Assembly (NCBI GenBank): GCA_017431945.1
Contig: JAFRJZ010000005.1
Span: 14,259 to 78,258, forward strand
Direction of reading: 5' to 3'
DNA from: Candidatus Saccharimonadota bacterium
Lineage (GTDB): Bacteria; Patescibacteriota; Saccharimonadia; Saccharimonadales; Saccharimonadaceae
Length of the DNA stretch: 64,000 nt
Shown: one piece after another, positions 12,429 through 45,777 of the stretch
How positions within the stretch are numbered: position 1 is the stretch's first letter
Layout of the letters: the number at the start of each line of letters is the position of its first letter
The notes under the pieces: model-generated
Database searches by the model: none
Seen by the model: only the letters and a program-made list of their open reading frames with translations
What the model was told of the DNA's origin: nothing
Program-made: the position numbers and the translations under genes

Positions 12429-12429
12429 A

Positions 12430-13407: not shown

Positions 13408-13452
13408 ATAATTATAATAAACGATTATTCGGTTATTGTCAAATTGAGGTGG

Positions 13453-16181: not shown

Positions 16182-16211
16182 ACGATACTCCTACTCTATA
16201 TTATATCATAA

Positions 16212-20185: not shown

Positions 20186-20315
20186 ATTTCCACTATTTTC
20201 AAGAAGTTTTCCACATAAAAATCTGGTTAGTGGTATTAGTTGTGGAAAAAATGACCTCTGTTTAGTGTTGTCAAGTATTATAAAATATAAAATGAGAAGA
20301 AAATCCTGTGGAAAA
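20186..20315. promoter_or_regulatory. DnaA-box cluster upstream of dnaA (left half of a probable bipartite oriC / dnaA autoregulation)
   Basis: ttttccaca at 20207-20215, and tgtggaaaa at 20241-20249 and 20307-20315. A further tgtggaaaa lies at 20393-20401 inside dnaA. Each is a 1-mismatch variant of TTATCCACA. Confidence 0.6.
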
Positions 20316-20372
20316 GTCGGGAAAATTTGTTATAATAAGAGCAGTTATAAATTAAGTTGGTCAGGAGGTGAA

Positions 20373-21731: not shown

Positions 21732-21985
21732 TGTGGATAAAATGTGGGGAAGTTTGTGGGTAAGTCTGTGGAGAAATTGTGGGGAAAAAATTAGTGGGTG
21801 GTGGAAAAATGTGATTTTTATAAAAAAATGTGAAAAAGTGGGTGGTTTTACACATAATGGGGGTGATTCTACACTGAGATTTACACAGGAAAATTACCTC
21901 TGTTATAATAGTTTATTTTCCACAATTTCCACAGGGTTTATTACTACTATAATAAATAATTTATTAAATTATAATATAAATGTGA
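21732..21985. promoter_or_regulatory. Probable oriC core: DnaA-box array plus AT-rich unwinding region in the dnaA-dnaN spacer
   Basis: A perfect tgtggataa lies at 21732-21740. Degenerate tgtggg/tgtgga boxes follow through ~21810. Then come ttttccaca (21916-21924) and atttccaca (21925-21933), and a nearly pure A/T stretch at 21937-21985. Confidence 0.65.
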
Positions 21986-21995
21986 GGAGGTGTAT

Positions 21996-23108
21996 ATGAA
22001 AATTGAAGTCACACAAGAAAAAATAAATAAAGCGTTAAACATCGTAAGTAAAGTGGCGGGTGGAAATAGAGCAACTTTACCTATACTAAATAACATTTTA
22101 ATAAAAGTGGAAAAAAAGAAAGTTTCATTAACTGCGACTAATTTAGATGTGGCAATAGTAGATTATATACCAACTAGTAAATCAGAAGATGGTAATGTAA
22201 CGATACCAGCAAGACTGTTGGCAGATTTTGTGAGTAATCTACCGAGGGGCGAGATGGTAGAAATTAGTACTGACGGTAATAAAGTGAAAATAAAATCGGG
22301 CAAGTACGCTTCAATTATTAATGGGACGCCAGCGGATGATTATCCAGAATTACCGGAAATTGATGAGAAAAAAGCATTAACATTTAAGATGAATGTGGAT
22401 GATTTTAAAGAAGGTTTGGAAGGGATAGTATTTGCAAGTTCAAATGATTTAACTAGGCCGGCACTAACTGGGGTATATTTTAATACTAATGATAGTGATT
22501 TGTATTTGGCGGCGACTGATGGGTATAGATTAGCAGAACGAAAATTTATTAGTAAAGTAAAAAGTGAGGTAGAAGCAATTGTGCCGGCGGGGTCACTACA
22601 AGAAGTGTTGCGTTCAGTAGATGATGAGACTGAGGAAATTGAGATTTTGTTTGACGAATCACAAGTGAGATTTAGATTAGATGAAATAGAGATAACTTCA
22701 AAATTGATTGATGGGTCGTTCCCCGATTATCGTCAGTTGATACCAAAAAAATCAGATATAGAGGTAGAACTAGAGCGTGAGGAACTAGTGAGAGTGACGA
22801 AACTTGCGGCGCTATTTGCACGAGAGGTCGGGGGATCGGTGATATTGGAAACTAATAAAGAAAAGCAAGTTTTTACGATTGCATCGGTAGTAAATGAATA
22901 TGGTGAAAATACTTCGGAAATTGAAACTAAAATAGATAAAGATGTAAAAGTGGTGCTAAATTCGCGATATCTACTAGATGTATTAAATATATTAAAAGAT
23001 GAGAAGGTGGGACTGAGATTTTCAAATAAATTGGATCCGGTGGTGGTTAAAAATGCCTCTGATAAGGGTGAATATACACATATAATTATGCCGTTAAATA
23101 TGAAATGA
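21996..23108 (+). CDS. dnaN: DNA polymerase III beta sliding clamp
   Basis: MKIEVTQEKINKAL...ATDGYRLA... The length (~370 aa) and the position after dnaA fit. The ATG at 21996 follows gaggagg; the track uses GTG at 21990. Confidence 0.93.
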   Translation: MKIEVTQEKINKALNIVSKVAGGNRATLPILNNILIKVEKKKVSLTATNLDVAIVDYIPTSKSEDGNVTIPARLLADFVSNLPRGEMVEISTDGNKVKIKSGKYASIINGTPADDYPELPEIDEKKALTFKMNVDDFKEGLEGIVFASSNDLTRPALTGVYFNTNDSDLYLAATDGYRLAERKFISKVKSEVEAIVPAGSLQEVLRSVDDETEEIEILFDESQVRFRLDEIEITSKLIDGSFPDYRQLIPKKSDIEVELEREELVRVTKLAALFAREVGGSVILETNKEKQVFTIASVVNEYGENTSEIETKIDKDVKVVLNSRYLLDVLNILKDEKVGLRFSNKLDPVVVKNASDKGEYTHIIMPLNMK

Positions 23109-24115
23109 TAATTAAGAGAGTAGAATTAGTAAATTTTCGTTGTCACACGAAGTATCAGTTAGAATGCGTAGAGATGACTTCGCAGATTTTGGGTGAAAAT
23201 GGAGCGGGCAAAACTTCAGTACTGGAAGCGATTTATGAGGCGATGCGAGGTAAAAGTTTTCGGGCGGTGGATACGGAAATATTGAAGCGGGGAGAGGAAT
23301 TTTATCGGGTAGAAATAGAATATAATAGTGGTGAGCGAATAGTAGTGGTGTATGACGGGGTAAAAAAGCAATTTTTAGTAGAAGATAAGAAATTTACTAG
23401 GTTACCGAAAAAAAATCGTTATCCAGTGATATTATTTGAACCGAGTGATATGGGATTAATAGGGACAAGTCCAACCAAAAAACGCGACTATTTTGACCGC
23501 TTTATAGGCGGTTTTGATGAGAAATATGTGTCTGATCTTAATAAGTATAAAAAGGCGCTCAAACAGCGAAATGAGACCCTTAAAAGTGATTTAGTGACGC
23601 GAGATGCGTTATTTTCGTGGAATGTATTATTAGCAAAACTGGGGTGCGAGATTGCAAAAAAACGGCGAAAATTAATCACAGAGGTGAATAATGAATTAAC
23701 CGATTATTATCGTTCAATAGCCGAAAATAAGGATAAAGTATGGATAGAATATTTGAATTTTGGTGAAATCGAGGAGATTTTGATAGATGAGAGTCAGTAT
23801 TTGAGACGACTGGAAACAGATTTTGAACGAGATAAAATATTACAGCATACGAGTTTTGGAATACATAAAGATAATTATAAGTTTATATTTAACAATCAAG
23901 ATGCGGATGGTTCGGCAAGTCGGGGAGAGAGTCGTTCGGTGATATTAGCATTAAAATTTATTGAGGCGAAAAAATTGCAAGAAAATACTGGTAAAAAACC
24001 GCTGGTACTACTAGATGATGTGTTTTCGGAGTTAGATAAAAAGCGCCAAAAATATTTAGTAAAGAATTTTCAAAATCATCAAGTGATATTAACTAGTGTA
24101 ACTAAGAATTTGTAG
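23105..24115 (+). CDS. recF: DNA replication and repair protein RecF
   Basis: N-terminal Walker A GENGAGKTSVLEAI, an SMC-like signature region, and C-terminal LLLDDVFSELD. Coupled to dnaN (ATGA overlap). Confidence 0.85.
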   Translation: MIIKRVELVNFRCHTKYQLECVEMTSQILGENGAGKTSVLEAIYEAMRGKSFRAVDTEILKRGEEFYRVEIEYNSGERIVVVYDGVKKQFLVEDKKFTRLPKKNRYPVILFEPSDMGLIGTSPTKKRDYFDRFIGGFDEKYVSDLNKYKKALKQRNETLKSDLVTRDALFSWNVLLAKLGCEIAKKRRKLITEVNNELTDYYRSIAENKDKVWIEYLNFGEIEEILIDESQYLRRLETDFERDKILQHTSFGIHKDNYKFIFNNQDADGSASRGESRSVILALKFIEAKKLQENTGKKPLVLLDDVFSELDKKRQKYLVKNFQNHQVILTSVTKNL

Positions 24116-25958
24116 TGGGGGGAGGAGTATTTTCGCTGGCGGTAGCGGCGGGATTGGTAGTGATGAGAGATTCTTCGGTTTCGGAGGCGATAACTTGAAT
24201 ATGGACATGATTACTACCAGCAAAGAAGAGGCCTTGACCGACTGGGAAATTATTAAGGCGTTTGCGCTCTTCGTCGGTGAGTTTAAAGACATCAGAGAGA
24301 ACATCAACAGCAGAGGAAGATTGTTTGAGAAGAAGTTGCATAGAGGAGTTATTAACAATGGCGCGACCCATCTTGGTAGACATAAAATCTTCAACGTCCT
24401 GAGTGATAGTAGTAAGGCCAAGATAGTACTTACGGGCGCGCTTAGCAAGGCTGAATAAGAAATTAGCAGAATCTTCAAATTGCATCAGTTGCCAGGCCTC
24501 ATCAACGATAAGGAGGCGTTTTTTCTGCTCGGCGCGAACGACATTCCAAATATGGCTAAGAATAATATACATAGCGACAGGACGGAGTTCGTCTTCGAGG
24601 TCGCGAATATTGAAGACTACCATTTGATTATTAATGTCAACATTGGATTGTTGGGAAAAGATACCAGCAAAAGTACCAGTAGTGTATTTACGGAGGCGCT
24701 GAGCGAGTTCGGGACCAGAACCGTCCATGTGGGCGAGAGTATCATAGAGTTCTTTGATAGTGGGTGGTGGTGACTGGTGAGTGAGTGGATCAGAGGTGAT
24801 ACCGGCGCGTGCGTAGGTATCAATAAGGGCTTGATCGAGATCGGCTTCTTCGTTAGCAGAGAGAGCGGGAATAACCATACCATTATTAGAAGTGGTGGCG
24901 CTACCCATCATGAGGCGGAAAAGGCCATGGAGAGTAACGAGATTAGCACGCAATGCGTCGTTAGCGTCTTCGGAATCGATAACTTTGGGTAAGTCAAAAG
25001 GGTTAATACGAACGTCAGAGTTGAGTGAGAGGCGAATATAAGAGCCACCGACGGCGTCGCAGAGTTTTTGGTATTCGTTCTCGGGGTCGATGATGATGAT
25101 TTCAGTGCCAATCATCATGGAGCGAATAGCTTCGAGTTTAACGGCGAAAGATTTACCAGCACCAGACTTAGCAAAGACTACCATATTGGCATTTTCAAGG
25201 GTGAAACGATCGAATATTACAAGACCGTTATTATGCATATTGATACCATATAAAATACCTTTTTCTTGAGTAAGGTCGGCGGAAGTAAAAGGAAAACTAG
25301 TAGAAATGGCGCCAGTATTCATATTACGACGGATTTGAAGTTGATCGGTGCATTGAGGCATAGTACTATTCATTCCCTGCTCTTGTTGAGAGCTGGCAAC
25401 CTTAGAAAAAACCATTTGTTGACCAAAGATAGTTTCGATTTTGTGTTGAACGAATTCAAGTTCTTCGAGTGAATTAGCCCAGAGAGTAATATAAAGACCA
25501 AAACGGAAAAATTTCTCGGCACCGACTTGTAGTTGGTCGCGGAGTTCCTCGGCGTCACTAATAGCGGCTTCAAGCTCAGGATCGCGGATTTTACCCTTTT
25601 CGGAATTAATACTGTAAGATGCTTCAAGCTGGGTGACTTTTTTACGGAGGTTTTTCATAACGACGCCAGTATCAACTGGGTAGATATACATAGAAAGGTC
25701 AAGGACTTCGTCAATATTAATGATAGATGAAAGCCAACCAGTAAAGAGTTCGCGCGGATAACCATAAACATAGATAGTACGGCCATATTTAGTACCAAGA
25801 CGGAAATAGCTAGAATGAATTTCAATAGAAGAAGGAGAAATCATATCGCGGAGAGTGGTAATACCCTGCTCGAAGGCGCGCTGAATCTCGGCATCTTCTT
25901 GGGCCTGAGCATTGGCAGCAATTTGAGCGGGGGTTGGCTGAGGTTGTTTTTTAGCCAT
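24102..25958 (-). CDS. virB4: VirB4/TraC-like type IV secretion ATPase
   Basis: 618 aa. Walker A FAKSGAGKSFAVK and Walker B RLLIVDEAWQL (the DEAW typical of VirB4/TrbE). The N-terminal region is of the Gram-positive VirB4 type (YGYPRELFTGWL). Confidence 0.85.
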   Translation of the reverse strand: MAKKQPQPTPAQIAANAQAQEDAEIQRAFEQGITTLRDMISPSSIEIHSSYFRLGTKYGRTIYVYGYPRELFTGWLSSIINIDEVLDLSMYIYPVDTGVVMKNLRKKVTQLEASYSINSEKGKIRDPELEAAISDAEELRDQLQVGAEKFFRFGLYITLWANSLEELEFVQHKIETIFGQQMVFSKVASSQQEQGMNSTMPQCTDQLQIRRNMNTGAISTSFPFTSADLTQEKGILYGINMHNNGLVIFDRFTLENANMVVFAKSGAGKSFAVKLEAIRSMMIGTEIIIIDPENEYQKLCDAVGGSYIRLSLNSDVRINPFDLPKVIDSEDANDALRANLVTLHGLFRLMMGSATTSNNGMVIPALSANEEADLDQALIDTYARAGITSDPLTHQSPPPTIKELYDTLAHMDGSGPELAQRLRKYTTGTFAGIFSQQSNVDINNQMVVFNIRDLEDELRPVAMYIILSHIWNVVRAEQKKRLLIVDEAWQLMQFEDSANFLFSLAKRARKYYLGLTTITQDVEDFMSTKMGRAIVNNSSMQLLLKQSSSAVDVLSDVFKLTDEERKRLNNFPVGQGLFFAGSNHVHIQVIASETEESLITTNPAATASENTPPPTTNS

Positions 25959-26847
25959 TTTGAACTCCTTTCTTTACATAGGTGGTAGCAAGTTTATGAA
26001 AATCACCTAACGGTTCGCGAACGGCGGTGTCGGGATTATTAAAGTTATAATATAATTCACCGAGTTCCTTAGTATTAAGGCGGACGGACTGGATACCAAT
26101 TTGAAAAAGGCCAGAGATGACAGATTCGACGCGGTTGTTAATTTCAGTGATAGCTTTTTCATAAGTGTCGCGATTAATGCGAGTGACTTCGGGGGCTTTG
26201 GTTTTACCGAAAGTTTTGAAGAAATTTTTGCTTTCTTCGAGGGATTTTTCGGCTTCTTTGGAAGTATAATATGGGATAACAATAAAGAAAGATTTATCCA
26301 TAATATTGGCTTCTTGAGAGAGAATATCGATAAAGTTGATATAATCGTCCATGAGAACGCCAAGGAGCATATTATCATTATTGCGACGGATATTAGAAAG
26401 ACGTTCTAAATAAGGGCCGATATCAACGCGTTGGGAACGGACAAGAATTTGGATAGTAAAAGTGAGAGAATTGAGAAAGTTTTGATAAGAATATTCGACG
26501 CCTTCGCGTTCGGCGGCAGACATAAGGTCGAAGTTGATAGATTTACAGGCGACGACGGCGCGGAACGAGCCGTCTTTCATGATGACGAGACTATCGCGAA
26601 GCTCAGAGATAAGTAGAGTGGACTGAGTGGCGACGGGGGAGTCGGGGGTGGTGTGAGTGGAGACGGGCTTTTGCTCGGGGGCGGCAGGCTGAGGAGCTGG
26701 CTGTTGTTGAATAACTGGTTGGGGTTGAGTAGCCTGGGGGGCAGGTTGCGGTACTGGTTGTTGGGTTACCGGTGGTTGTGGTACTGGTTGTGGTGCTGCC
26801 TGGGGTGCCGGTTGTTGTTGATAGGGTTGCGCTTGATTATTATCCAT
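25951..26847 (-). CDS. T4SS-associated hypothetical protein with a Pro/Gln-rich N-terminus
   Basis: 298 aa. The first ~60 aa are a QP/AP low-complexity tract. The remainder loosely resembles the N-terminal region of VirB4-type proteins (my impression only). 8-nt overlap with virB4. Confidence 0.45.
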   Translation of the reverse strand: MDNNQAQPYQQQPAPQAAPQPVPQPPVTQQPVPQPAPQATQPQPVIQQQPAPQPAAPEQKPVSTHTTPDSPVATQSTLLISELRDSLVIMKDGSFRAVVACKSINFDLMSAAEREGVEYSYQNFLNSLTFTIQILVRSQRVDIGPYLERLSNIRRNNDNMLLGVLMDDYINFIDILSQEANIMDKSFFIVIPYYTSKEAEKSLEESKNFFKTFGKTKAPEVTRINRDTYEKAITEINNRVESVISGLFQIGIQSVRLNTKELGELYYNFNNPDTAVREPLGDFHKLATTYVKKGVQNG

Positions 26848-26850
26848 AAA

Positions 26851-27732
26851 TTACCTCAAAGAAATATAAACTTCGTCCTTTTGATTAATACGATTAGCTT
26901 CTTTTTGAATAGTCTCGATTGAATAATCGGGATTATTAGCTAGTTCTATTATACTAGGTTTTGGTGGTTTTGTGCTAGTGGTTTTTGATGATTTAAGGTC
27001 AGGTTTAACCATAACATCGTTTTGAGATGTTATGGATTTTTCTTCAGTTTCTATATTTTTTGTACTAGATTCAACTTTATCTTTAGGAGAATTTTCGGAT
27101 TTTTTGTTATGTTTTTCAATACTTGGTGGTGTTAAATCTTTTTCTCTTTCGATTTCTTGAATAGCAGTACGCATTTGGTTTAGAACTTCGCTTTTGTGAG
27201 CAGCTTGTTCTTGGTTAATCATGTAATCAATATTATTAGTGTTAGTATTATCGAAAATATCGGGGGCGTTGTTGGCTTCAGCGGCATAATCGTCACGCAT
27301 AGAAGTGGTGTTTTTGATGGATTCACCCTCGGTATCGACGATATCAGCGAGGAAAGAGAGGCGGTGGCTGGCTTCTTCTTCGGAAATGTCGCGGACGCGG
27401 GGTTTCTCGACAACTTTGGGGGCGGTGATGGTAATAGTAGACTCGCGCTGGCCGGGAATCCAAAAACGTTTGCGGGGCTTGAGATAAAAAGAGACGAGAG
27501 CAGCGAGATAAGTCTCCATGGGCTGGTCTTTTTTAAGGGGTAGGGCAAGGATAGCGAAGAAGAAAATAATCGGAATAGGAATAATGGCGAGTAGAGGAAA
27601 AATCTGAAAAAGCCCAATAGCAATGGCAACACCAGCACCAGCAATTAAAAGATAGATGAATTGGCGGAACGAAAAAGGCCCGAGGAGTTTATCGTCGGCT
27701 TCGACGTCTTGAGGAACTTTGTATTGTGCCAT
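26851..27732 (-). CDS. PrgI-family (VirB3-like) T4SS membrane protein with a long disordered C-terminal extension
   Basis: The N-terminus MAQYKVPQDVEADDKLLGPFSFRQFIYLLIAGAGV, followed by two TM helices, matches the PrgI-family pattern as I remember it. Confidence 0.55.
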   Translation of the reverse strand: MAQYKVPQDVEADDKLLGPFSFRQFIYLLIAGAGVAIAIGLFQIFPLLAIIPIPIIFFFAILALPLKKDQPMETYLAALVSFYLKPRKRFWIPGQRESTITITAPKVVEKPRVRDISEEEASHRLSFLADIVDTEGESIKNTTSMRDDYAAEANNAPDIFDNTNTNNIDYMINQEQAAHKSEVLNQMRTAIQEIEREKDLTPPSIEKHNKKSENSPKDKVESSTKNIETEEKSITSQNDVMVKPDLKSSKTTSTKPPKPSIIELANNPDYSIETIQKEANRINQKDEVYISLR

Positions 27733-27786
27733 ATATTGTATATTATAGCATAATTTTTATGGTTGTTGAATTGGCCGAGTATGTAT

Positions 27787-30732
27787 TTAGACGCCAAGGG
27801 CGCGACGGATACCAGGGCGCATACCGCTGAGGGCGCTGGGGTTGGTGGCTTTGATACGTTCGAGATCGGCGACAACACCCTTTTTTTCCATGATTTTACG
27901 AAATTCAGCAAGAGCGGCATTTTCGTCACCACCTTTTTGATACTGGAGCTGAGCAATGACGGCTTTGAAGGCATCAGTCTTGAAACCAATAACGTTTTCG
28001 GTAGTCATCATTTTAAGATAAATTTCAGTGCGGTCTTTATGTTCGGCAAGTTTCTCGGGGGTGAGCTTATCAGTAGGAATATCCCAAGTATCGGTTTCGG
28101 TGTGATATTTGGCGCCAGTGATGAAGTTAGCGGTATTAACCATTTGTTCGCTACCAGATGAGAAAGAACTGATAGCACTAATGAGACTAGGTGTCATGTT
28201 GCGGAAGAGGAGGTCGCGAGCTTTTTTGGCTTGACTAGCGCTGCCGTCAAAGTTTTCAGCAACTAAGTATTTGTCGATATCGTGTTCAAGGCCGCTATAG
28301 AAGGTACGATCAATTTCTTTGAGGCTGGTGCCTTGGAGGAGACCTTGGGCATTAAATTTAGTGGGCTGACCACTAGCATCTTTACCAGTAAAGTATTCTT
28401 TCATAGTGACGGTATTAGTGTCGCGATCACCGTTGGTGTATCTCCAAGTCTCGACGTTAATATGTTTGCCGAGACGGCCAAGGCTAGGTGCGGCATTTTT
28501 CATACCTAAGAGGTTAAGAGCAAGGACGTTAGCAAAGTCGGTGTTGAGTTCGAGATAACCCTCTTGGTCCATATATTCGCCGAGCTTCTTCTCAATTTTA
28601 TCGTAATCGCCGCGTTTGGCGGTGATATTTTGAGCGGCGACGATACCCTCGATATTTTTGCTGGCAAGCATTTGGTCGTAGACTTTATCAACTTCAAAGC
28701 TGACTTGTTTGTCAAGGTAGGTAGTGTATTTAGCGGTATTGATAGCGCGTTCTTTTTCAATCATATCGTAAGCGTCGGCGACGACTGAGGTGGTAGCGTC
28801 AAAGCGAGTTTTCTCGGCATCAGCGCGAGCTTGGCCGGTGAGACTACTATCGACAAAGGCGTCAGCACCAGCACCGGCTTCGATGAAGCGACGATAGGCA
28901 TCGGGATTTTTGAGAGTGCCATCGCTGTGACGCTCGGCGGCTTTTTGAAGTTCGCCGAAGTAGTAGCGCTTATCGCTGAGATCATTACGACGAGCAGCAG
29001 ACTTCAGGGTTTCATTGTCGAGATAATTTTGAGCCTGTTGGTCGGCGATTGAGCGCAGACGAGTGTCAGTAATGTTGTGCTGAGTGAGATAGGTACCCAT
29101 GGAGCCAATAGCATTTTCGGCAGCTTGGTGAGTATTTTCGGCATTAAAGGCGGCGGCGCGAGTAAGTAGATTATCACGCATGTAACGGTTGGATTTGACG
29201 AGATCTTCACCAGTTTTAGGATCTTTAGCATAAATAGCGCGGCCAGTTTGCTTATCAAAACCAGTAATTTGTTTGCCCATGGATTGAGCTTCGAGCTGCT
29301 GCTTGAGACGAACATTAGTAAGATCTTCGTATTGTTTGAGTTGCTCGGCATTTCTAGCGCGATAATTTGCGATAGCACCACTAAGAGAACGACCAGTAAC
29401 TGGACGAACAAAGCGACGCCTGCCATCAGTGCCACGCTGAATAGGGTTACGAAAAGTTAGAGGATTTTGCAGGCCTTTGGCGGTATGGCGGGCGCGAGCG
29501 GTAGCTTGGCGACTGGCTGAAAAATTGCGGGCGCCACCATGGAGACTATTACCAGCACGATTAGCAAGGTTACCAGCGCGGTCAAGGAAAGTGCCAGAAG
29601 TTTTCATTAATGGAAGAGCGAGACAGAGAGGAATAATTTGAACAGCCATGCCAATAACAACCCAAAAAGCATTTTGAGCAGAGGAAATTAAAATCCAACC
29701 GATTAAACTAGAAGCGCCAAATAAGAGACTGAACATAGGATAAAAAACAAGCATGGTAGTGAAAAGTTTGCGCCAACTATCAAATAACCTACTGGTATTA
29801 GGTAGGAGATAAGCAACAAAAGCAAGGGGGGCAATCATGACAAGGATAACTACAAGAGCTTGACGCAAAGAAATCATGATAAGAGCAATAATAATAGAGA
29901 TGATAGCGCCAATGATGACCGGAATGAGTAACCAGAGGAGGCCGATAATACCACCAGATAAGGAAGCGGCAAGAGCGCCAATGCCAACAACGCCAACACC
30001 AGTGAGTATTCCGCCAGCGATTTCGCTCCAAGATAAATGAGAAGCTTCACCGTTATTGCCAACGACGGTTTCGGTGATATGATCGAAGAAACCGACTAGA
30101 CTACTACCGATGATATTACTAATATCGACAGCAAACGAACAGATGATATAACTGAGGTTGACGAGAATGGCGGCGATAATGATTTTAGGTAAAGTCTTTT
30201 TGACACCATAGTTACTGATACCAAGGCCGGTGATTTGTGAATAGACGATAATAAGGATAAAAATGATAAAAACGACATTAGTAATACCGCGAGCGTATTC
30301 CCAAACTTGATAGATAGGAGAGTCGGCATCGGTAGAGATGGGCTTGACGACGAGAAAATCCTCGATGATGTTGTAGGCAGCGTCAACGGCTTTGGCAATG
30401 GTTTTGATGGTAGGACAGACTATCCAGCTAATAGCACCAGCTTGATCATAACAGTTAGGGGCGGAGGAATTTTTTTCAGAGTTTTCTTCGGAGTTTTCTG
30501 TGGAATTTTCGTTATTAGTGTTATTAGCGTCGTTGTTATTGTTAGTATCGGTATTTTCGGTAGTATCGCTAGTTTCGGAGGTGTTTTCGGAATTATTTTC
30601 GGAATTGGTGGAGTTTGATAAATCTTCGGGAGCGGCAATAACAGGGGTGGACGAGAATAATACTAGAGAACCAAAAAGCAAACCAAGCAGCGCCAGGAAT
30701 AACTTCGGCAGTTTAGTTTGTCGTTTTATCAT
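27787..30732 (-). CDS. Large polytopic T4SS membrane protein (VirB6/TrbL-like core) with a ~550-aa C-terminal soluble domain
   Basis: It has a signal peptide, an Asn/Glu/Ser/Thr low-complexity tract and ~8 TM helices (aa ~150-400), followed by a long hydrophilic helical region. The assignment rests on topology and context, not on a motif. Confidence 0.5.
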   Translation of the reverse strand: MIKRQTKLPKLFLALLGLLFGSLVLFSSTPVIAAPEDLSNSTNSENNSENTSETSDTTENTDTNNNNDANNTNNENSTENSEENSEKNSSAPNCYDQAGAISWIVCPTIKTIAKAVDAAYNIIEDFLVVKPISTDADSPIYQVWEYARGITNVVFIIFILIIVYSQITGLGISNYGVKKTLPKIIIAAILVNLSYIICSFAVDISNIIGSSLVGFFDHITETVVGNNGEASHLSWSEIAGGILTGVGVVGIGALAASLSGGIIGLLWLLIPVIIGAIISIIIALIMISLRQALVVILVMIAPLAFVAYLLPNTSRLFDSWRKLFTTMLVFYPMFSLLFGASSLIGWILISSAQNAFWVVIGMAVQIIPLCLALPLMKTSGTFLDRAGNLANRAGNSLHGGARNFSASRQATARARHTAKGLQNPLTFRNPIQRGTDGRRRFVRPVTGRSLSGAIANYRARNAEQLKQYEDLTNVRLKQQLEAQSMGKQITGFDKQTGRAIYAKDPKTGEDLVKSNRYMRDNLLTRAAAFNAENTHQAAENAIGSMGTYLTQHNITDTRLRSIADQQAQNYLDNETLKSAARRNDLSDKRYYFGELQKAAERHSDGTLKNPDAYRRFIEAGAGADAFVDSSLTGQARADAEKTRFDATTSVVADAYDMIEKERAINTAKYTTYLDKQVSFEVDKVYDQMLASKNIEGIVAAQNITAKRGDYDKIEKKLGEYMDQEGYLELNTDFANVLALNLLGMKNAAPSLGRLGKHINVETWRYTNGDRDTNTVTMKEYFTGKDASGQPTKFNAQGLLQGTSLKEIDRTFYSGLEHDIDKYLVAENFDGSASQAKKARDLLFRNMTPSLISAISSFSSGSEQMVNTANFITGAKYHTETDTWDIPTDKLTPEKLAEHKDRTEIYLKMMTTENVIGFKTDAFKAVIAQLQYQKGGDENAALAEFRKIMEKKGVVADLERIKATNPSALSGMRPGIRRALGV

Positions 30733-30866
30733 CTCTATAATAACTCCTTAGAGCTTATATCTTAATTATAGCACACATAAGCAAAATAGTCAACAGTTAT
30801 GACATATTTTACCCCAGTAAGTTTTGTGCTGGTATTTTAGAGAAAATGATGATATGATTATAACAT

Positions 30867-31307
30867 ATGAAACAGAAAATTCTGCTATTTGTTGGTATCG
30901 TGATAATGGGGGCGATGGCGTTTAGTTTGATACCGGAACCAGTGATGGCGGCGAATAGTTCTGGTGATTGTAAACAAGGTGGTTTTTTAGGGTTTAGGGC
31001 TTGGTATGATGGTCTGCCATGTGAAGACGGTGCAATTAAAGCGCCAAAGGGTGATACTAGTGGCGCTTCAATTGCAGGATTTGTATGGACAATTGTAGCA
31101 AATGTATTAGTAGATTTGTTTATGGTGGTAGGTTTCTTGGCCGTAGGTTTCTTGATGTATGGCGGATATCTCTATATCATGTCAAATGGTGATCCAGGGA
31201 AAGTAGCAAGCGGAATGAAGACAATTAAAGCGGCAATAATTGGATTAATTATTGCAATACTGGCGAACGTAATTATTAGAACGATATTGGTAATACTAGG
31301 AGTGTAA
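30867..31307 (+). CDS. T4SS pilin-like protein (VirB2/TrbC-type), paralog 1
   Basis: Signal/TM, then the two-helix module ...YGGYLYIMSNGDPGKVASGMKTIKAAIIGLIIAILAN... Confidence 0.6.
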   Translation: MKQKILLFVGIVIMGAMAFSLIPEPVMAANSSGDCKQGGFLGFRAWYDGLPCEDGAIKAPKGDTSGASIAGFVWTIVANVLVDLFMVVGFLAVGFLMYGGYLYIMSNGDPGKVASGMKTIKAAIIGLIIAILANVIIRTILVILGV

Positions 31308-31308
31308 A

Positions 31309-31596
31309 ATGGAAATAATGAAGTTTTTAGGAGATTTGCCAGGGCTAGGACCGATTCCTAAGAAGGATTGGAGTAGCGCTAGTGCAGTAACGACATTTTT
31401 CCAGGTAGGCATTGCAGCGGCTGGATTGGTAGCGGTGGCATTTATCGTAATAAACGCAATCCAAATGGCAACATCAAATGGTGATCCAGGAAAAGTAAAA
31501 AAAGCGCGCGAGGGGATTTTGTATTCAGTAATTGGCTTGATAATTGTAATAATGGCAGAAGCGATAATATTCTTTGTGTCAAGTAATGTGGAGTAA
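31309..31596 (+). CDS. T4SS pilin-like protein, paralog 2
   Basis: ...INAIQMATSNGDPGKVKKAREGILYSVIGLIIVIMAEAIIFF... Same module as the neighbouring paralogs. Confidence 0.6.
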   Translation: MEIMKFLGDLPGLGPIPKKDWSSASAVTTFFQVGIAAAGLVAVAFIVINAIQMATSNGDPGKVKKAREGILYSVIGLIIVIMAEAIIFFVSSNVE

Positions 31597-31599
31597 AAA

Positions 31600-31941
31600 A
31601 TGAAGGAAAAAATTTTTGAAATGATGGCTGCTTATAAGGATCCAGCGTGCGATAGTTTAACAGATGAAGCACAAAAGAGTGCAGCAGGTTGTGATTTAGG
31701 AAAAAATGCGAATGCTTTTGCTTCTTTTCAAAATATAATTTATGTGATGATTGGTGTAACGGCGGTAATAGCGGTAGCTATGATTGTTATTGGTGGTATA
31801 AATTATACAACAAGTGCTGGGGATGGGGCGAAGGCTAAAAAAGCCAAAGATACGATTTTGTACGGTGTAATTGGTTTGATAATTGCGATTATGGCATTCG
31901 CAATTATAACCTTTGTGACAGGTGCGATAAAGATAAGTTAG
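31600..31941 (+). CDS. T4SS pilin-like protein, paralog 3
   Basis: ...GGINYTTSAGDGAKAKKAKDTILYGVIGLIIAIMAFAIITFV... Confidence 0.65.
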   Translation: MKEKIFEMMAAYKDPACDSLTDEAQKSAAGCDLGKNANAFASFQNIIYVMIGVTAVIAVAMIVIGGINYTTSAGDGAKAKKAKDTILYGVIGLIIAIMAFAIITFVTGAIKIS

Positions 31942-32007
31942 GGTTGATTTTTAAATATAAGTGTGATATATTAAAAATAGCTAATAAATAATAGGAGTTA
32001 CAAGACT

Positions 32008-32397
32008 ATGAAGAAATTAATACTGAGCACAATGATGGCTGTGATGACAGTACTAGGCTTAGGTGGTGTGGCGATGCTTTCGCCGGTGTATGCGGCGCAA
32101 GATGGCGCCAAAAAAGGCACAGAATACATGGGTGAAGCTGGCGCAAAAGACCAAGAAACTGATGTCATGAGTATTGTGACGGTTGGTATTAATGTGGTGC
32201 TTGGTTTAATTGCGTTGGCAGCAGTAATTATGATTATTATTGGTGGTCTTAATTACACCACTTCGCAAGGCGAAGCGACTAAAGTAAAGAAAGCTAAGGA
32301 TACAATTCTCTACGGTGTAATTGGTTTAGTGATTGCACTTCTAGCTTTCGCGATTGTGAACTTTGTACTTGGACAAGTATTTGGTAGTGAGATATAA
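32008..32397 (+). CDS. T4SS pilin-like protein, paralog 4
   Basis: Signal peptide ending VYA-AQ, then ...GGLNYTTSQGEATKVKKAKDTILYGVIGLVIALLAFAIVNFVLG... Confidence 0.65.
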   Translation: MKKLILSTMMAVMTVLGLGGVAMLSPVYAAQDGAKKGTEYMGEAGAKDQETDVMSIVTVGINVVLGLIALAAVIMIIIGGLNYTTSQGEATKVKKAKDTILYGVIGLVIALLAFAIVNFVLGQVFGSEI

Positions 32398-32459
32398 AAT
32401 ATAAAAAATAAAAGCCCCGAAGAGTTTCTTTTGGGACTTTTTTGTGATATGATATTAGT

Positions 32460-32909
32460 ATGAAGAAAATTATAAAAATAAAGACAATTTTATTAGTTTT
32501 AGCGATGATGTTTTTGGGCGCAGGAATAATGATTCCTAGTGTTAGTGCCGTAAGTTGTCCGAGTGACTCGATTAATGGTTCGGCAGATAGTTTGGCGGAA
32601 TGTAACATAGAAAAAGATGATAGTTTTTGGCCAACAATAACAACCATTATAAATGTGGTGTTGGGATTGATAGCAGTAATAGCGGTGATTATGATTATCA
32701 TTGGCGGTATTGAGTATACAGTATCACGAGGAGATGCGACTAAAACTAAAAAAGGTAGAGATACCATTATTTATAGTGTGATTGGCTTGGTGATAGCATT
32801 GCTGTCATTTGCGGTTGTGAACTTTGTATTAAGAGAAGTGTTTGATAGCGGCATCAAGAATAAGAGTAGTTACATAGAAGTTATTAACACAACAGAACGA
32901 ATAGGATAG
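32460..32909 (+). CDS. T4SS pilin-like protein, paralog 5
   Basis: Signal peptide, then ...GGIEYTVSRGDATKTKKGRDTIIYSVIGLVIALLSFAVVNFVL... Confidence 0.65.
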   Translation: MKKIIKIKTILLVLAMMFLGAGIMIPSVSAVSCPSDSINGSADSLAECNIEKDDSFWPTITTIINVVLGLIAVIAVIMIIIGGIEYTVSRGDATKTKKGRDTIIYSVIGLVIALLSFAVVNFVLREVFDSGIKNKSSYIEVINTTERIG

Positions 32910-32931
32910 GTTCTCTTTTAAAATTTAGAAA

Positions 32932-32959
32932 AATACCGCCCTGCGAGGAGGCGGTATTT
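32932..32959. terminator. Bidirectional stem-loop between pilin paralog 5 and hsp20
   Basis: aataccgcc-ctgcgagga-ggcggtatt, flanked by an A-run and a T-run. Confidence 0.6.
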
Positions 32960-32980
32960 TGATATTTCGGCCTAGGTGAA

Positions 32981-33499
32981 TTATTGAACCTTGATTTTGA
33001 GGGCGGGTTCAACACGTTCCTTTTCAAAGGTGATAGTGAGTACGCCATCTTTGAGTTCGGCTTTGACACTACCCTCGTCTTCTTTAACCTGAACTGGAAG
33101 AGCGATAGTACGGGAGAATTCACCCCAATAACATTCTTGGATGTGCCAACGAGTGGTGCGATCGTCTTCGCCACCGCTTAAGACGCCAGAAATCGTAAGG
33201 ATGTTTTCGGCGATGGTGACATTGAGATCGGACTTGCTGATGCCAGCAGTGCGAGCCTTGACGATTAACTTGTCGGCAGTTTCGTAAACATCAACAGCTA
33301 GCTGACCAGGAAAATCGTCGGTGGTATCAACCCACTCTTCAGAATCGGCCGAATCTGGTTCGACAGGAGTTTCTTCCTCTGGAACTGTTTCGATGTCGGC
33401 ATTAGCTTCTTGGTCGATAATAGTAGTATTGTCATTCTCTAAGAACGCGGCAGCTAATTCGTCCTCCATTAGCATGTCGTCAGTATCTTTGCGAGCCAT
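32981..33499 (-). CDS. Small heat-shock protein (Hsp20/alpha-crystallin)
   Basis: C-terminal alpha-crystallin domain (...LAVDVYETADKLIVKARTAGISKSDLNVTI...FSRTIALPVQV...AELKDGVLTITFEK). The start is set at MARKDT (33499), preceded by ggagga. The track ORF adds 5 codons. Confidence 0.85.
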   Translation of the reverse strand: MARKDTDDMLMEDELAAAFLENDNTTIIDQEANADIETVPEEETPVEPDSADSEEWVDTTDDFPGQLAVDVYETADKLIVKARTAGISKSDLNVTIAENILTISGVLSGGEDDRTTRWHIQECYWGEFSRTIALPVQVKEDEGSVKAELKDGVLTITFEKERVEPALKIKVQ

Positions 33500-33569
33500 A
33501 TATTTTTCCTCCACTTTAAAACTCTTGTTATGCTTTATTATAAACAGGTTTTATAGTAAAATCAAGCAA

Positions 33570-34364
33570 ATGAGCGACTTTATTGTAAAAAATACAACAA
33601 GTGTCAGTATCTTAGACCTGTTTTGCCCCCACTTCTGTAGGGGTTGTGGATGTCTGGGGAGGCCGTTTTGTAAGTGTTGTAAAAATTACATCGTTCGGAC
33701 CTATGTTAATTATTGTCCGGCTTGTTATGAGCCGAGCGAGGGTAAATGTACGGATTGTGAATTGCCGTTTGACGGACTATATATGGTGGGGTGGCGAGAT
33801 ACGGAAATCGGTGAACTGGTAGAGGAATATAAATATCAGTCGGTGCGAAGTGCGGGAAGCGATTTGGCGGAAATGTTGGATGCAGTGATTCCCTGCTTAA
33901 AAGGTGAGGTGGTGGTAGTGCCACTGCCAACGATTCGTAAGCATATTAGGGCGCGGGGGTTTGATCATACTAAGGCGGTGGCGCGAAAATTGGCAAGAAG
34001 GCGGGGATGGAAAATGCAGAGTGTACTAGTGAGAGCTCAGGATACGGTACAGGTGGGAGCGGATAATGAGCAGAGAAAAAAGCAGGCGAGTGAAGCGTTT
34101 GAGCTGAAGGGTGAGATTTGTCGAGATGTGACTTATTTGTTATTTGATGATATTTGGACGACGGGGGCGAGTATGATGGCGGGGGCGGAGTTGTTGAAGG
34201 AAGGCGGGGCAACCAAAATAATGGGGGCGGTGATAGCGGTGAGCAGGATGAAATTAGTCGCCGGTGACGGTTTCGGTGGGAGCGGTGGTGTCGGTAGGAC
34301 TGCTAACGCCGATAGCGTTGAGGACGAAGTTGACGATCGCAAAAGCAAGGATAGCGATAATTAG
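33570..34364 (+). CDS. comFC: ComF-family phosphoribosyltransferase (ComFC)
   Basis: The start is set at MSDFIV (33570). It has an N-terminal 4-Cys zinc finger (CPHFCRGCG...CKCC / CPAC...CTDC) and a C-terminal PRTase motif LLFDDIWTTGASM. The track ORF start at 33321 is antisense to hsp20 and is rejected. The last ~37 codons overlap the convergent pilin gene. Confidence 0.8.
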   Translation: MSDFIVKNTTSVSILDLFCPHFCRGCGCLGRPFCKCCKNYIVRTYVNYCPACYEPSEGKCTDCELPFDGLYMVGWRDTEIGELVEEYKYQSVRSAGSDLAEMLDAVIPCLKGEVVVVPLPTIRKHIRARGFDHTKAVARKLARRRGWKMQSVLVRAQDTVQVGADNEQRKKQASEAFELKGEICRDVTYLLFDDIWTTGASMMAGAELLKEGGATKIMGAVIAVSRMKLVAGDGFGGSGGVGRTANADSVEDEVDDRKSKDSDN

Positions 34365-34673
34365 ACCGATGATGGCGTAAAGGATGGTGTTTTTGGCGTC
34401 GGTGACTTTTTTGTTGTCGCCACCAGAGAGGATGTAGCGAATACCACCCCAGATGAGCATAATGACTGAGACAATACCGACAATATAAAGAATAGTGTTA
34501 GAAATCTTGGTAAAAACGCCGTCGGAGCCGATAAGAAAACGGGGCATGTCGTCACCTTTGGCGGCTTCGGCGCCTTCGCGAACACCAAAGGCCATAACTT
34601 TACCTGCAGTAAGAGTGCAGGCGGTAGCGACAGCGGTTGCGGAAGTGGTAATAAACTTGGTAATTTTTTTCAT
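34254..34673 (-). CDS. T4SS pilin-like protein, paralog 6 (detached, opposite strand)
   Basis: ...WGGIRYILSGGDNKKVTDAKNTILYAIIGLIIAILAFAIVNFVLN... plus a Thr/Pro-rich C-terminal tail. Confidence 0.65.
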   Translation of the reverse strand: MKKITKFITTSATAVATACTLTAGKVMAFGVREGAEAAKGDDMPRFLIGSDGVFTKISNTILYIVGIVSVIMLIWGGIRYILSGGDNKKVTDAKNTILYAIIGLIIAILAFAIVNFVLNAIGVSSPTDTTAPTETVTGD

Positions 34674-34724
34674 ATGAAACCTCTTAGAGATAATTATAAC
34701 ACATTTTAATGGAATTCTAGAAAA

Positions 34725-34733
34725 TGTTATAAT
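34725..34733 (+). promoter_or_regulatory. Extended -10 promoter (TGtTATAAT), 6 nt upstream of the ATG at 34740
   Basis: tgt-tataat, then ttaaat, then the ATG. Confidence 0.5.
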
Positions 34734-34739
34734 TTAAAT

Positions 34740-35606
34740 ATGTTAATAAAGGAAAAAATTAGGAAGTGGTGGTGGGTAGTGCTGATGGCTGCGATGGTGG
34801 CAGTAGCGGTGTTTTTGGTAATGATGGTTCTAAATGGAAGAGGGGAGATGAAAGAAGAAGTAGTGCCGGTGGAGGAGATGGAGAGTGTCGAAGTGGCGGA
34901 GCCAGAAGAGCCAGAGGAGGAGCTGACGAGCGATTTACCGGCCAGCAGTACGGGAAATTGCACTCTGGAGTTTGGCAAGTTAGCAGTGGTGAATTATAAC
35001 TTTACGGTGGATCCAGAATTTATTGCGAAGCGAGGAGAACAATTGGTGAATATTACGGAATTGTATGGAATAAGAGAGGCACATGCTTATAATGGAGTGC
35101 CGATGCTAGATAAAGAGGCGGGAGAGCATTTGAATGAGATGCTGAATGCGTACAAGGAAGCATATCCGGGGCACGAGATGCAGACAATGTCGTGTTTTCG
35201 TAGGGTAGGAACGCAGTGTGGGAGGTTGTGTGCGGAGACGGGAAAGTCAGACCATCACTTGGGTTATACTTGTGATTTGATAGATACGGCGTATGGAAGT
35301 GAACTGGACACTGATTATTATGATGTGCATGTGGATTGGCAGTGGCTGAAGGAAAATTCGTATAAGTATGGATTTATTGACCGTTATCCAGAGGAATGGG
35401 CGGGAGGCTCAATGTTGGAACCGATAAATGTGGACGAAAATGGCTCAACGGGGTTGTATGAAACTTGGCACTATCGTTATGTGGGGATAAAGGCGGCGAC
35501 TGAGATAGCGGAGGGCAAGTATAATGACGGTAAATATGATTCGTTAGAACATTATCTAAAAGAGCGGGGACTGGTGACGGATTTGATAGGCAATGTGTGT
35601 AGATAA
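34740..35606 (+). CDS. Membrane-anchored D-alanyl-D-alanine carboxypeptidase (VanY / peptidase M15B-like)
   Basis: N-terminal TM. SDHHLGYTCDL matches the SxHxxGxAxD zinc-ligand block of M15B, and WHYRYVG is the C-terminal His block. Confidence 0.75.
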   Translation: MLIKEKIRKWWWVVLMAAMVAVAVFLVMMVLNGRGEMKEEVVPVEEMESVEVAEPEEPEEELTSDLPASSTGNCTLEFGKLAVVNYNFTVDPEFIAKRGEQLVNITELYGIREAHAYNGVPMLDKEAGEHLNEMLNAYKEAYPGHEMQTMSCFRRVGTQCGRLCAETGKSDHHLGYTCDLIDTAYGSELDTDYYDVHVDWQWLKENSYKYGFIDRYPEEWAGGSMLEPINVDENGSTGLYETWHYRYVGIKAATEIAEGKYNDGKYDSLEHYLKERGLVTDLIGNVCR

Positions 35607-35645
35607 TTTATTATTATAGTGTAATTGTGCTATAATGGTAATTAT

Positions 35646-35738
35646 GGAGGGTTACCCAAGTGGCTGAAGGGGACGGTTTGCTAAATCGTTAGTCTGGGGA
35701 AACCTGGAGCGGGAGTTCGAATCTCCCACCCTCCGCCA
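35646..35738 (+). tRNA. tRNA-Ser (anticodon GCT), class II with a long variable arm; CCA encoded
   Basis: Manual fold: acceptor ggagggt/accctcc, anticodon stem acggt/atcgt with loop ttGCTaa, T-arm gggag-ttcgaat-ctccc. A TGcTATAAT promoter lies at 35628-35636. Confidence 0.9.
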
Positions 35739-35744
35739 AAAGTT

Positions 35745-36212
35745 ATGACAGAAAATATTAACGATATTAGATGGGAAGCACACGAATATATCCAGCGTGA
35801 TAAGAACGCAGGATGGTATGTGGCAATGGTATTGATTGCGGCGGCGATAGTGGCCTTGGCAGTGTGGCGAGGCTGGTGGACTTTTGCGGCCTTAATAGTG
35901 GTGTGTGTAATTGCACTGATTTTGTATTCGGTGCGCCCGCCCCGTAAATTGCACTATGTTTTGAATAAGGAAGGATTAAAAGAGGAGAATAAATTATATA
36001 AATTTGAAGATTTTAAGGCATTTGGAATAGATAAGGACGATAAATATTATGCGATAGTTTTGATATCAAAAAAGCGGTTTTCGCCACGCGTGAGGGTATA
36101 TTTTCCTCAAGAAAGCGGTGAACAAATTATAGATATGTTTGGGATGAGGTTGCCAATGGAGGAGGTGAAGCCGGATTTTGTGGATAAAATTGTAAAACTC
36201 TTGCGCATTTAA
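35745..36212 (+). CDS. Hypothetical membrane protein (two TM helices)
   Basis: 155 aa. The hydrophobic hairpin is WYVAMVLIAAAIVALAVW...FAALIVVCVIALILY. No family recognised. Confidence 0.5.
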   Translation: MTENINDIRWEAHEYIQRDKNAGWYVAMVLIAAAIVALAVWRGWWTFAALIVVCVIALILYSVRPPRKLHYVLNKEGLKEENKLYKFEDFKAFGIDKDDKYYAIVLISKKRFSPRVRVYFPQESGEQIIDMFGMRLPMEEVKPDFVDKIVKLLRI

Positions 36213-36263
36213 AAAATATGGTGTATAATAAAGCATAAGTAATTTTAATAAATAAGGTGGGCT

Positions 36264-36977
36264 ATGAATTCTAACGAAGATGAGCTTCAAAAAGCAATAA
36301 ACGATATAACTAATAACATGTTGAATGAAACGCCGGTAGCACCGGAGGGTGTTGCACCAGCGCCGGTAGCGGAGACGCCTGCAGCACCGGTCGAACCGGT
36401 AACGCCAGTTGAACCAGTGGCTCAAGTGGCACCAGAAACTGCTAATATGGTACCGCCAACGGTAGCGCCGTTGCCAGATGCACAAAATTTGCAAACAGCG
36501 CCAGTGGCGCCAGTAGCGCCAGTGGCGGAGGCGACACCTGAGCCAGCTCCTGCTGAGGAAGTAGTATCTGAGGTGGTGACGGCGGATATTCCAGATTTGT
36601 CGATGCCAGAACCGGTGAGTGAGCCGGAGTCGGCTGATGAGCCAGCTAAGGAAGATGAGATTAAGAAACCGGAAGAAGTAAAAGAAGAGCCAAAGGAAGA
36701 AGAAAAACCAGTAGAAGGAATGACGATGGATTTCAGTGAAAAAATGGAGATAGAGCCGGGTGGAGTGAAAGAGAAGGCTTTGCGTGACTTGATGCCGATA
36801 TTGAGCGGAATGAACAATATAGATGCCGAAAAGAAGTTTAAGATTTATTGTGATATGATGGAAGTGTTGGGTGAGAAAGATATCGCAAATGACGCTTATG
36901 AAGTGGCAACACAGATTGGTGACGACAACGTACGCGGTGAAGCCTTGCTTAAATTAGTTGATTTGTTAGATAAATAA
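36264..36977 (+). CDS. Hypothetical acidic Pro/Ala/Val/Glu-rich protein
   Basis: 237 aa with a good SD (aaggtggg). It has low-complexity PVAP/EPV repeats and a structured-looking C-terminal ~70 aa. Confidence 0.5.
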   Translation: MNSNEDELQKAINDITNNMLNETPVAPEGVAPAPVAETPAAPVEPVTPVEPVAQVAPETANMVPPTVAPLPDAQNLQTAPVAPVAPVAEATPEPAPAEEVVSEVVTADIPDLSMPEPVSEPESADEPAKEDEIKKPEEVKEEPKEEEKPVEGMTMDFSEKMEIEPGGVKEKALRDLMPILSGMNNIDAEKKFKIYCDMMEVLGEKDIANDAYEVATQIGDDNVRGEALLKLVDLLDK

Positions 36978-45694: not shown

Positions 45695-45777
45695 TTTTAC
45701 CTCCTAGAGGAACATTTGACTTTTTATGATAACATTGTATAACAATTAAGCCAAAATGTCCCTCCGATTTTTAATTA

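Follow-up and report, generated by a model that had tools for sequence, protein, structure and literature searches.

The described systems most similar to the one considered here come from Saccharibacteria and other Patescibacteria. An 'apparent T4SS (SEML1_0006-0019)', that is, a type IV secretion system (T4SS), with no recognisable coupling protein or relaxase was reported in Southlakia epibionticum ML1 by Wang et al. 2023 (PMC10633639). Transposon sequencing (Tn-seq) of ML1 found the T4SS genes and the pilin array to be essential for epibiotic growth (PMC10633639). In Table S1 of the same study Hsp20 (SEML1_0020) is scored as essential, ComF (SEML1_0021) and the reverse pilin (SEML1_0024) as non-essential, and comEC was also not required for growth on the host (PMC10633639). 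Quinonero-Coronel et al. 2025 (PMC12102498), who surveyed 3,035 genomes of Patescibacteria, described dnaA-proximal loci encoding VirB4, TrsD, PrgI/VirB3, VirB6 and VirB2 arrays; relaxases occurred in only 103 of these genomes, and homologues of the type IV coupling protein (T4CP) were common, mostly far from virB4. These systems were called 'newcomers' to the T4SS superfamily in a 2025 review (PMC12857230). Here we analyse a T4SS-like locus at positions 24102-34673 of a 64-kb window (the whole stretch of contig JAFRJZ010000005.1 of a Candidatus Saccharimonadota bacterium that was analysed; all coordinates refer to it). The system itself has already been described, and the window holds a trimmed copy of it in an uncultured ruminant-gut Saccharibacterium.

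The gene map, constructed from lists of open reading frames (ORFs) and from Pfam and NCBIfam scans, matches SEML1_0008-0011, 0014-0021 and 0024 of ML1 gene for gene, in order and in sizes. Both genomes have dnaA-dnaN-recF, an opposite-strand VirB4 (612 aa in ML1), a 293-aa protein in ML1 at the place of the 298-aa one here, PrgI, a VirB6-like protein of about 1,000 aa, divergent pilins, hsp20, comF and a reverse pilin. However, four genes lie between recF and virB4 in ML1 alone, encoding a hypothetical protein, a PEGA protein, a lysozyme+CHAP protein and a 1,113-aa protein with a DD-peptidase domain, all scored as essential; two more genes found only in ML1 separate the VirB6-like gene from the pilins, and their products are an NTF2/VirB8-like protein and a second VirB6-like one. 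In the window there is no gene in either of these two places. On the other hand, the window has a small VanY gene after the sixth pilin, which ML1 does not.

The locus does not differ in kind from the surveyed Patescibacteria systems: an MPF-FATA VirB4, TrsD, PrgI/VirB3, VirB2 arrays, no relaxase, and a position near dnaA, dnaN and rnpA are shared, while the VirB6 of those systems has a tentative counterpart here. The pilins of the window are somewhat more alike (mean identity 37%) than the average of 25% within the surveyed arrays (PMC12102498). We establish the component identities (with VirB6 tentative), the operon structure, its conservation, and its orthology to the cluster scored as essential in ML1. 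The interpretation given in the initial annotation of this DNA was largely right, but the literature has overtaken it: the arrangement had been published, and the transposon test that it proposed had been run, as Tn-seq, on the orthologous locus (PMC10633639, PMC12102498). New here are the conservation counts, the missing post-virB4 hydrolases in this lineage, a look-alike in Pontibacillus, and the lack of a skew switch at dnaA. We consider it moderately probable that the locus is a chromosomally fixed 'Patescibacteria-type' T4SS with a pilus, derived from the conjugation machinery of monoderms (MPF-FATA) and acting, without conjugation, at the contact with the host.

Components of the locus

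The VirB4 ATPase (618 aa, 24102-25958, minus strand) exceeds the cut-off of the NCBIfam family NF045971 (conju_CD1110, VirB4-like conjugal transfer ATPase; 383 bits, cut-off 325) and matches Pfam P-loop_TraG (1e-30) and PDB entry 4ag5 (3.6e-49). Both Walker A (GAGKS) and Walker B (LLIVDE) motifs can be read from the sequence. The assignment as VirB4 of the MPF-FATA/CD1110 type is secure, and synteny and the source names of the homologues would place the protein inside the Patescibacteria clade. An identical protein is encoded on eight metagenome contigs with the same synteny, and the DNA runs containing the locus come from ruminant and other gut metagenomes. The alignment to NF045971 spans profile positions 179-732 of 752, and thus the N-terminal domain of VirB4 (about 180 residues) is missing.

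The gene directly upstream (25951-26847, minus strand), whose stop overlaps the virB4 start by 8 nt, encodes a 298-aa protein with a P/Q-rich N-terminus of about 70 residues followed by a globular domain that resembles the N-terminal domain of VirB4. Initially noted only as a PQ-rich protein, it is indeed present, and can be refined to a recognisable T4SS component, a homologue of TrsD, as the VirB4 N-terminal-like piece is called by Quinonero-Coronel et al. (PMC12102498). Its matches in NCBIfam are TrsD (2e-7), VirB4_plasma (positions 111-254) and VirB4_CagE (positions 19-179), all below the curated cut-offs, and there is a precomputed match to PF26593 (TraC-like). The listed TrsD homologues are 64-97% identical. 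When profiles are compared with hhalign, there is a match to the product of the gene upstream of a short VirB4 in Pontibacillus (probability 99.3%, E 3.7e-20); the match to a full-length clostridial VirB4 is weak (E 0.079), but lies at the expected place (residues 20-196). No match was found when the profile was compared with PDB sequences. The simplest reading of these comparisons is that VirB4 may be encoded in two pieces, TrsD and the ATPase.

The next gene (26851-27732, minus strand) encodes a 293-aa PrgI/VirB3-like membrane protein in the position of SEML1_0010. It matches PF12666 well above the cut-off (1.3e-12, 48.5 bits against 27), and by hydropathy residues 21-68 form a single long hydrophobic hairpin, while the C-terminal tail is hydrophilic. 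Of the two membrane components proposed initially, VirB3 is retained on the Pfam match, whereas the matches of the VirB6 candidate are sub-threshold or precomputed.

This candidate is the 981-aa product of the gene at 27787-30732 (minus strand), an extended VirB6-like protein. The VirB6 signals are weak: TrbL at 0.041, TrwI/VirB6 (7o3v_F) at E 0.12, and a precomputed match to PF19590 (TrbL_3). TrbL is matched at E<=0.01 by 14 of the 31 orthologues (best 7.7e-5), again sub-threshold. The hydropathy profile has a signal peptide, a low-complexity spacer rich in N, S, E and T, and about seven hydrophobic segments (residues 143-378), followed by an Arg-rich linker (15 K+R in residues 376-450) and an all-alpha C-terminal domain of about 530 aa. 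Hydropathy and the charge of the linker suggest that the C-terminal domain is cytoplasmic (N-out/C-in). The AlphaFold2 (AF2) model has a mean pLDDT of 68, with 70-94 in the C-terminal domain and 50-65 in the transmembrane part. The large hydrophilic C-terminal domain fits the 'extended VirB6' class of PMC12857230. More than 1,500 full-length homologues exist, the named ones from Saccharibacteria. Scanning one genome per species gave 493 relatives, of which 80 were retrieved; all 80 are titled Saccharibacteria, Saccharimonadales, Nanosynbacter or Nanosyncoccus, and the nearest of them, from sheep ileum, is 82% identical.

Five VirB2-type pilins are encoded divergently from the operon, on the plus strand (30867-31307, 31309-31596, 31600-31941, 32008-32397 and 32460-32909). 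A sixth, on the minus strand at 34254-34673 (PF18895 at 2.4e-13), forms the right end of the span; the genes listed in the initial annotation are as it gave them, but this one was not among them. All six exceed the cut-off of PF18895 (T4SS_pilin) and all match NF045849 ('Mbov_0395 family pilin-like conjugal transfer protein'), two of the array's five above its cut-off. Each has two hydrophobic helices joined by a loop rich in G and D/K, which is the VirB2 layout. Signal-like N-terminal segments are seen in three pilins of the array, while pilins 2 and 3 have no obvious signal peptide. The pairwise identity of the six ranges from 23% to 52%.

The minus-strand order VirB6-like - PrgI/VirB3 - PQ-rich protein - VirB4, facing the divergent pilin array, was proposed from the outset, and the component families found here agree with it, more weakly at the VirB6-like gene. 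The divergent region of 134 bp upstream of the VirB6-like gene contains a predicted sigma-70-like promoter (30765-30793, minus strand; TTGACT-17 nt-TATAAT, with TG before the -10 hexamer). It agrees with the consensus at 11 of 12 positions and is the best pattern match in 23800-36300.

Chromosomal setting and conservation

The order VirB6-PrgI-TrsD-VirB4 was observed in 62 of 64 species-level Saccharibacteria genomes; here and below, counts are limited to loci whose flank reaches far enough. Across genomes the locus is flanked by groEL, comF and hsp20 on one side and, in flanks that are long enough, by recF, dnaN and dnaA on the other. The divergent pilin array is present in 54 of 57 genomes, with two to six genes, most often five, and is mostly separated from the VirB6 gene by 70-200 bp; a reverse-oriented pilin occupies the position of the sixth pilin in 53 of 57. 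Both hsp20 and comF are found at the locus in 54/57 genomes, and groEL nearby in 36/45. Given this conservation of the core, the pilins and the neighbours, the locus is part of the conserved chromosomal backbone. The co-conservation analysis therefore bears out the earlier suggestion that it sits in the chromosome core and not in a mobile element.

In the window the backbone genes on the left are yidC (18607-19605, minus strand), rnpA (19628-19975, minus strand), dnaA (ORF from 20166, probable start at about 20373, end at 21728, plus strand), dnaN (21990-23108, plus strand) and recF (23105-24115, plus strand). At their 3' ends virB4 and recF overlap by 14 nt, and the 3' end of virB4 lies about 2.4 kb from the end of dnaA.

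To the right of the pilin array, hsp20 (32981-33499, minus strand) encodes a small heat-shock protein (PF00011 at 1.4e-15). A hairpin with a 12-bp stem and T/A runs (32930-32960, a pattern match assigned to neither strand) lies between the converging ends of the array and hsp20 and is likely a bidirectional terminator, as predicted from the sequence. The comF gene (33570-34364, plus strand) encodes a phosphoribosyltransferase-like protein of the ComF/ComFC family (TIGR00201 comF at 2.4e-18, below the cut-off). It converges with the sixth pilin gene, the two overlapping tail to tail by 111 nt (34254-34364), and the ComF part of the overlap is a low-complexity tail rich in G, D, E and S. Both hsp20 and comF are stable neighbours; hsp20 is a putative member of the system, and comF is probably not part of the machine.

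A membrane-anchored VanY/M15B D-Ala-D-Ala carboxypeptidase (34740-35606, plus strand; PF02557 at 1.7e-14) follows the sixth pilin. Its functional link to the T4SS, considered possible at first, is not upheld: VanY occurs within 9 kb in only 4/45 genomes and has no similarity to the hydrolases encoded after virB4 in other Saccharibacteria. We reject it as a T4SS component and regard it as a lineage-specific insertion. The gene is followed by tRNA-Ser (35646-35738), two small conserved ORFs (35745-36977) and groEL/ES. The two ORFs are kept between the sixth pilin/tRNA-Ser and groEL in 34/45 Saccharibacteria genomes, and the gene list of ML1 shows no evident counterpart. The first encodes 155 aa with two adjacent hydrophobic segments; the second, of 237 aa, is acidic, rich in P, A, V and E, and has no family match.

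In most genomes two to four co-directional genes follow virB4. Where scanned, they encode phage-tail-lysozyme, CHAP, M23, NlpC/P60, GH3 and PEGA domains. The recF gene abuts virB4 in only 3/61 genomes, all in the clade of the window, and comparison of the relatives' post-virB4 hydrolases with the window by tblastn gave no match. The lineage of the window has a pared-down version of the locus, from which the usual peptidoglycan-hydrolase genes are absent.

No match to the families of T4CP, relaxase, VirB1, VirB8, VirB9 and VirB10 was found among ORFs of >=230 aa in the 64-kb window, VirB8 being judged by sequence families only, and this bears out the initial statement that these parts are lacking in and beside the locus. 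For relaxase there is likewise no family match in the window, with no separate search for oriT. No coupling protein (VirD4/TcpA) was found there; the only FtsK-related matches in the window are two small gamma-domain proteins of a probable integrated island. No integrase or repeats flank the locus.

This probable island extends over about 44.0-58.6 kb (44031-58595), beside tRNA-Arg (44031-44107), and most of its genes have negative GC skew at third codon positions (GC3 skew). It encodes a serine recombinase (44042-45694, minus strand), a SpoVG-like protein (46120-46590, minus strand), a type III restriction-modification methylase and Res helicase (47407-51551, plus strand), the two FtsK-gamma-domain proteins (51587-52544, plus strand), a Fic/DOC protein (52795-53391, plus strand), and a histidine-kinase-like ATPase with DUF4325 (53997-55022, minus strand). 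A DUF3800-IX RNA motif (Rfam RF02968; 55489-55551, plus strand; 55.6 bits against a gathering score of 36.8) is abutted by the 3' end of a gene for a DUF3800 protein (55551-56183, minus strand). At the edge of the island, 56589-58595, there is a 668-aa ORF with no Pfam or NCBIfam family. We rejected the island as the missing conjugation module, as it contains restriction-modification, Fic and DUF3800 genes and no relaxase or T4CP.

The locus was initially placed next to the replication origin. The part of this claim that stands is the gene order dnaA-dnaN-recF, together with two clusters of four DnaA-box-like 9-mers flanking dnaA (20207-20391 and 21732-21924); within the window, GC content is lowest in the dnaA region. 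However, the GC skew, which disagrees with the DnaA-box evidence, does not change sign there. To the left of dnaA as well as to the right, every native stretch has a positive plus-strand GC skew; the GC3 skew, taken relative to the same strand, lies between +0.17 and +0.88 in native genes, whichever way they are oriented, as far as 62.5 kb. The one-signed skew spans about 24 kb to the right and 29 kb to the left of dnaA (the window and 8.7 kb to its left). The relatives likewise have no skew switch at dnaA. In 84 Saccharibacteria loci the skew takes values from -0.38 to +0.34, so that the strong asymmetry is lineage-specific. A position next to the origin is thus plausible, but, as judged from base composition, this clade may have its replication origin elsewhere than at dnaA. 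The skew of this clade bears on the gene-dosage idea put forward in the survey (PMC12102498): an origin away from dnaA, if true, would undercut 'origin-proximal gene dosage' as the explanation for the siting of the T4SS.

One further gene of the window could be relevant to host contact. The 729-aa protein encoded at 13453-15642 has four ricin-type beta-trefoil lectin repeats and an N-terminal part of about 290 aa with no family match, and could be a surface glycan-binding protein. Its gene lies beside one of the LytR-CpsA-Psr type and a large cell-envelope cluster of glycosyltransferase/YfhO genes (3970-17807).

Possible function

In the reading that we favour, TrsD would complement VirB4 in trans, and PrgI/VirB3 and VirB6 would dock VirB4 at the membrane. 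The VirB4 complex would pull signal-peptide-processed pilins out of the membrane and polymerise them into a VirB2-type pilus or conduit, and this conduit would reach the host cell at the epibiont-host contact site. Macromolecules would be moved across the contact, most probably proteins outward to the host; both the cargo and its direction are our inference. Plasmid conjugation is not expected, since no relaxase, oriT-processing protein or coupling ATPase accompanies the locus.

Several observations weigh against this reading. Translocation and its direction are uncertain even in the cultured relative, and a 2024 perspective called the role of these systems 'completely unknown', naming effector delivery and nucleotide or DNA uptake as candidates (PMC11665869). 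Since the hydrolases scored as essential in ML1 are missing here, the machine may function in another way or rely on hydrolases from unlinked genes. Other parts of the genome may encode a coupling protein. RNA runs containing the locus were looked for and none was found. The AF2 model of the TrsD-like protein is poor (pLDDT 40), the alignment being probably too shallow (68-88% identity to the query). Finally, the homology to VirB6 is weak, and this is the weakest component assignment, although topology and operon position fit. A Foldseek comparison of the 981-aa model with PDB yielded only generic ARM/HEAT alpha-solenoids (E > 0.05), which speak neither for nor against VirB6, the transmembrane part being poorly modelled; the 31-orthologue profile had only low-complexity matches among PDB sequences, and the hhalign comparison of the VirB6-like profile with a bona fide CD1112 VirB6 was not significant.

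It is possible, but rather unlikely, that the machine works inward, importing host DNA, nucleotides or building blocks like ComB or Ced/Ted and thus feeding an organism that is unable to make nucleotides. The idea was raised in PMC11665869, on the ground that competence genes are dispensable while the T4SS is essential, and the missing relaxase and T4CP fit import equally well. VirB4 has partial matches to the DNA-import ATPases CedB (3.8e-11) and CedD. However, these matches are far below the cut-offs (42 bits against 700 for CedB, 28 against 600 for CedD) and reflect the shared ATPase core only; beyond that generic core, no Ced or ComB components were found. The presence of comF beside the locus in nearly all genomes (54/57) could point to DNA uptake, and a link to comFC was indeed suggested initially. 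The adjacency is real, but it proves little, as groEL/ES is similarly conserved nearby. Moreover, the T4SS of ML1 is essential but its comF and comEC are not, and thus any import would have to proceed without the known DNA channel of the inner membrane. A DNA-binding component was not identified.

Less probable still is an organelle for adhesion alone, in which VirB4, VirB3 and VirB6 would build variable VirB2 filaments and nothing would be translocated. The six divergent pilin paralogues and the conserved arrays of two to six pilins agree with such a role, as does the absence of a substrate-recruiting T4CP from the window. The components kept, VirB2, VirB3, VirB4 and VirB6, would, judging by the structure of the R388 T4SS, be those needed for pilus biogenesis. 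On the other hand, adhesion and motility of Saccharibacteria have already been attributed to type IV pili, and the conserved, probably cytoplasmic VirB6 domain of 530 aa may serve in the docking of a substrate or a partner.

An ordinary or decaying integrative conjugative element, with the relaxase and coupling protein just beyond the window, is highly improbable. In its favour, VirB4 is a member of the conjugative CD1110 family and most of its plasmid relatives are typed conjugative, and the serine-recombinase island (44-58 kb) is about 10 kb away. We reject any such element because of the fixed backbone position (dozens of species-level genomes have the same order between groEL and recF/dnaN/dnaA) and because neither a relaxase nor a T4CP was found in the window, the island included. 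The GC3 skew of the T4SS genes matches the native genome while that of the island does not, no integrase or repeats flank the locus, and relaxases are rare in Patescibacteria altogether (103/3,035 genomes; PMC12102498).

The T4SS of Saccharibacteria is one of a small number of machines on which the epibiotic life of candidate phyla radiation (CPR) bacteria is known to depend. The window adds no new kind of system. However, a natural lineage that has only pilins, VirB3, VirB6, TrsD and VirB4 at the locus shortens the list of parts required by the core machine, and the locus is a compact construct for heterologous or complementation work in cultured relatives.

Comparison with plasmid-borne and other systems

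The published VirB4 tree has conjugative elements as the only outgroups (PMC12102498), and thus look-alikes from outside the CPR may not have been compared. A search of VirB4 against plasmids gave several relatives, mostly typed conjugative. In plasmid pCDC3875 of Clostridium botulinum, an example of the conjugative MPF-FATA systems of the CD1110/CD1112/CD1115 type, the operon order is the same, VirB6/TrbL, PrgI, one intervening gene and VirB4 (31% identical), followed by a cell-wall hydrolase (an SLT transglycosylase). However, pCDC3875 also encodes a VirD4-like T4CP, its relaxase typing is MOBP, its VirB4 is full-length (797 aa) and its VirB6 short (260 aa), and it has no annotated pilin genes.

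The most similar plasmid-borne VirB4 found (37.6% identity) is that of the linear plasmid of Embleya sp. NBC_00896 (NZ_CP108778.1). It is also short (643 aa), and the genes before it encode a membrane protein of 753 aa and a member of the PrgI family. Unlike the window, this locus has a T4CP directly after VirB4, a replication-relaxation family protein and an NlpC/P60 hydrolase. The intervening XF1762-family protein gave no match with the TrsD profile, and no TrsD-like protein was detected in the Embleya locus; in hhalign, the VirB6-like profile shares only one motif of 36-43 residues with the large membrane protein.

The ComB system of H. pylori and the archaeal Ced/Ted systems resemble the locus in being T4SS-derived, relaxase-free and put to non-conjugative use.

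The same module as in the window was found on the 898-kb megaplasmid of Pontibacillus sp. ALD_SL1 (NZ_CP062975.1, 351.8-361.4 kb). It consists of two Mbov_0395-type pilin-like genes and genes for a 779-aa polytopic protein, a small VirB3/TraL-like protein, a 274-aa TrsD homologue, and VirB4. The VirB4 is short (621 aa), and its identity is 36% over 97% of the length. Neither a T4CP nor a relaxase is encoded in the 7 kb on the right side of the Pontibacillus locus or in about 16 kb on its left side, the replicon is typed non-mobilizable, and the locus lies among flagellar and chemotaxis genes. The differences are the host, a free-living member of Bacillota, a 1,050-aa M23 peptidase encoded after VirB4, and the pilins, only two and co-directional with the operon. 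The similarity of the large membrane proteins is limited to one 36-residue motif (hhalign, E 0.0018).

A bolder reading, which we hold to be doubtful, is that the window may contain the smallest working pilus T4SS of a monoderm, made of VirB2 pilins, VirB3, an extended VirB6 and a two-piece VirB4, with no dedicated hydrolase, VirB8 or coupling protein; together with the Pontibacillus module it would point to a wider, so far unrecognised class of non-conjugative T4SS with pili in Gram-positive bacteria, possibly an importer, and, as a separate matter, the origin would not be at dnaA. The Pontibacillus module, which shares with the window the short VirB4, the separate TrsD and the Mbov_0395-type pilins, is a possible model for the system in a free-living, cultivable member of Bacillota.

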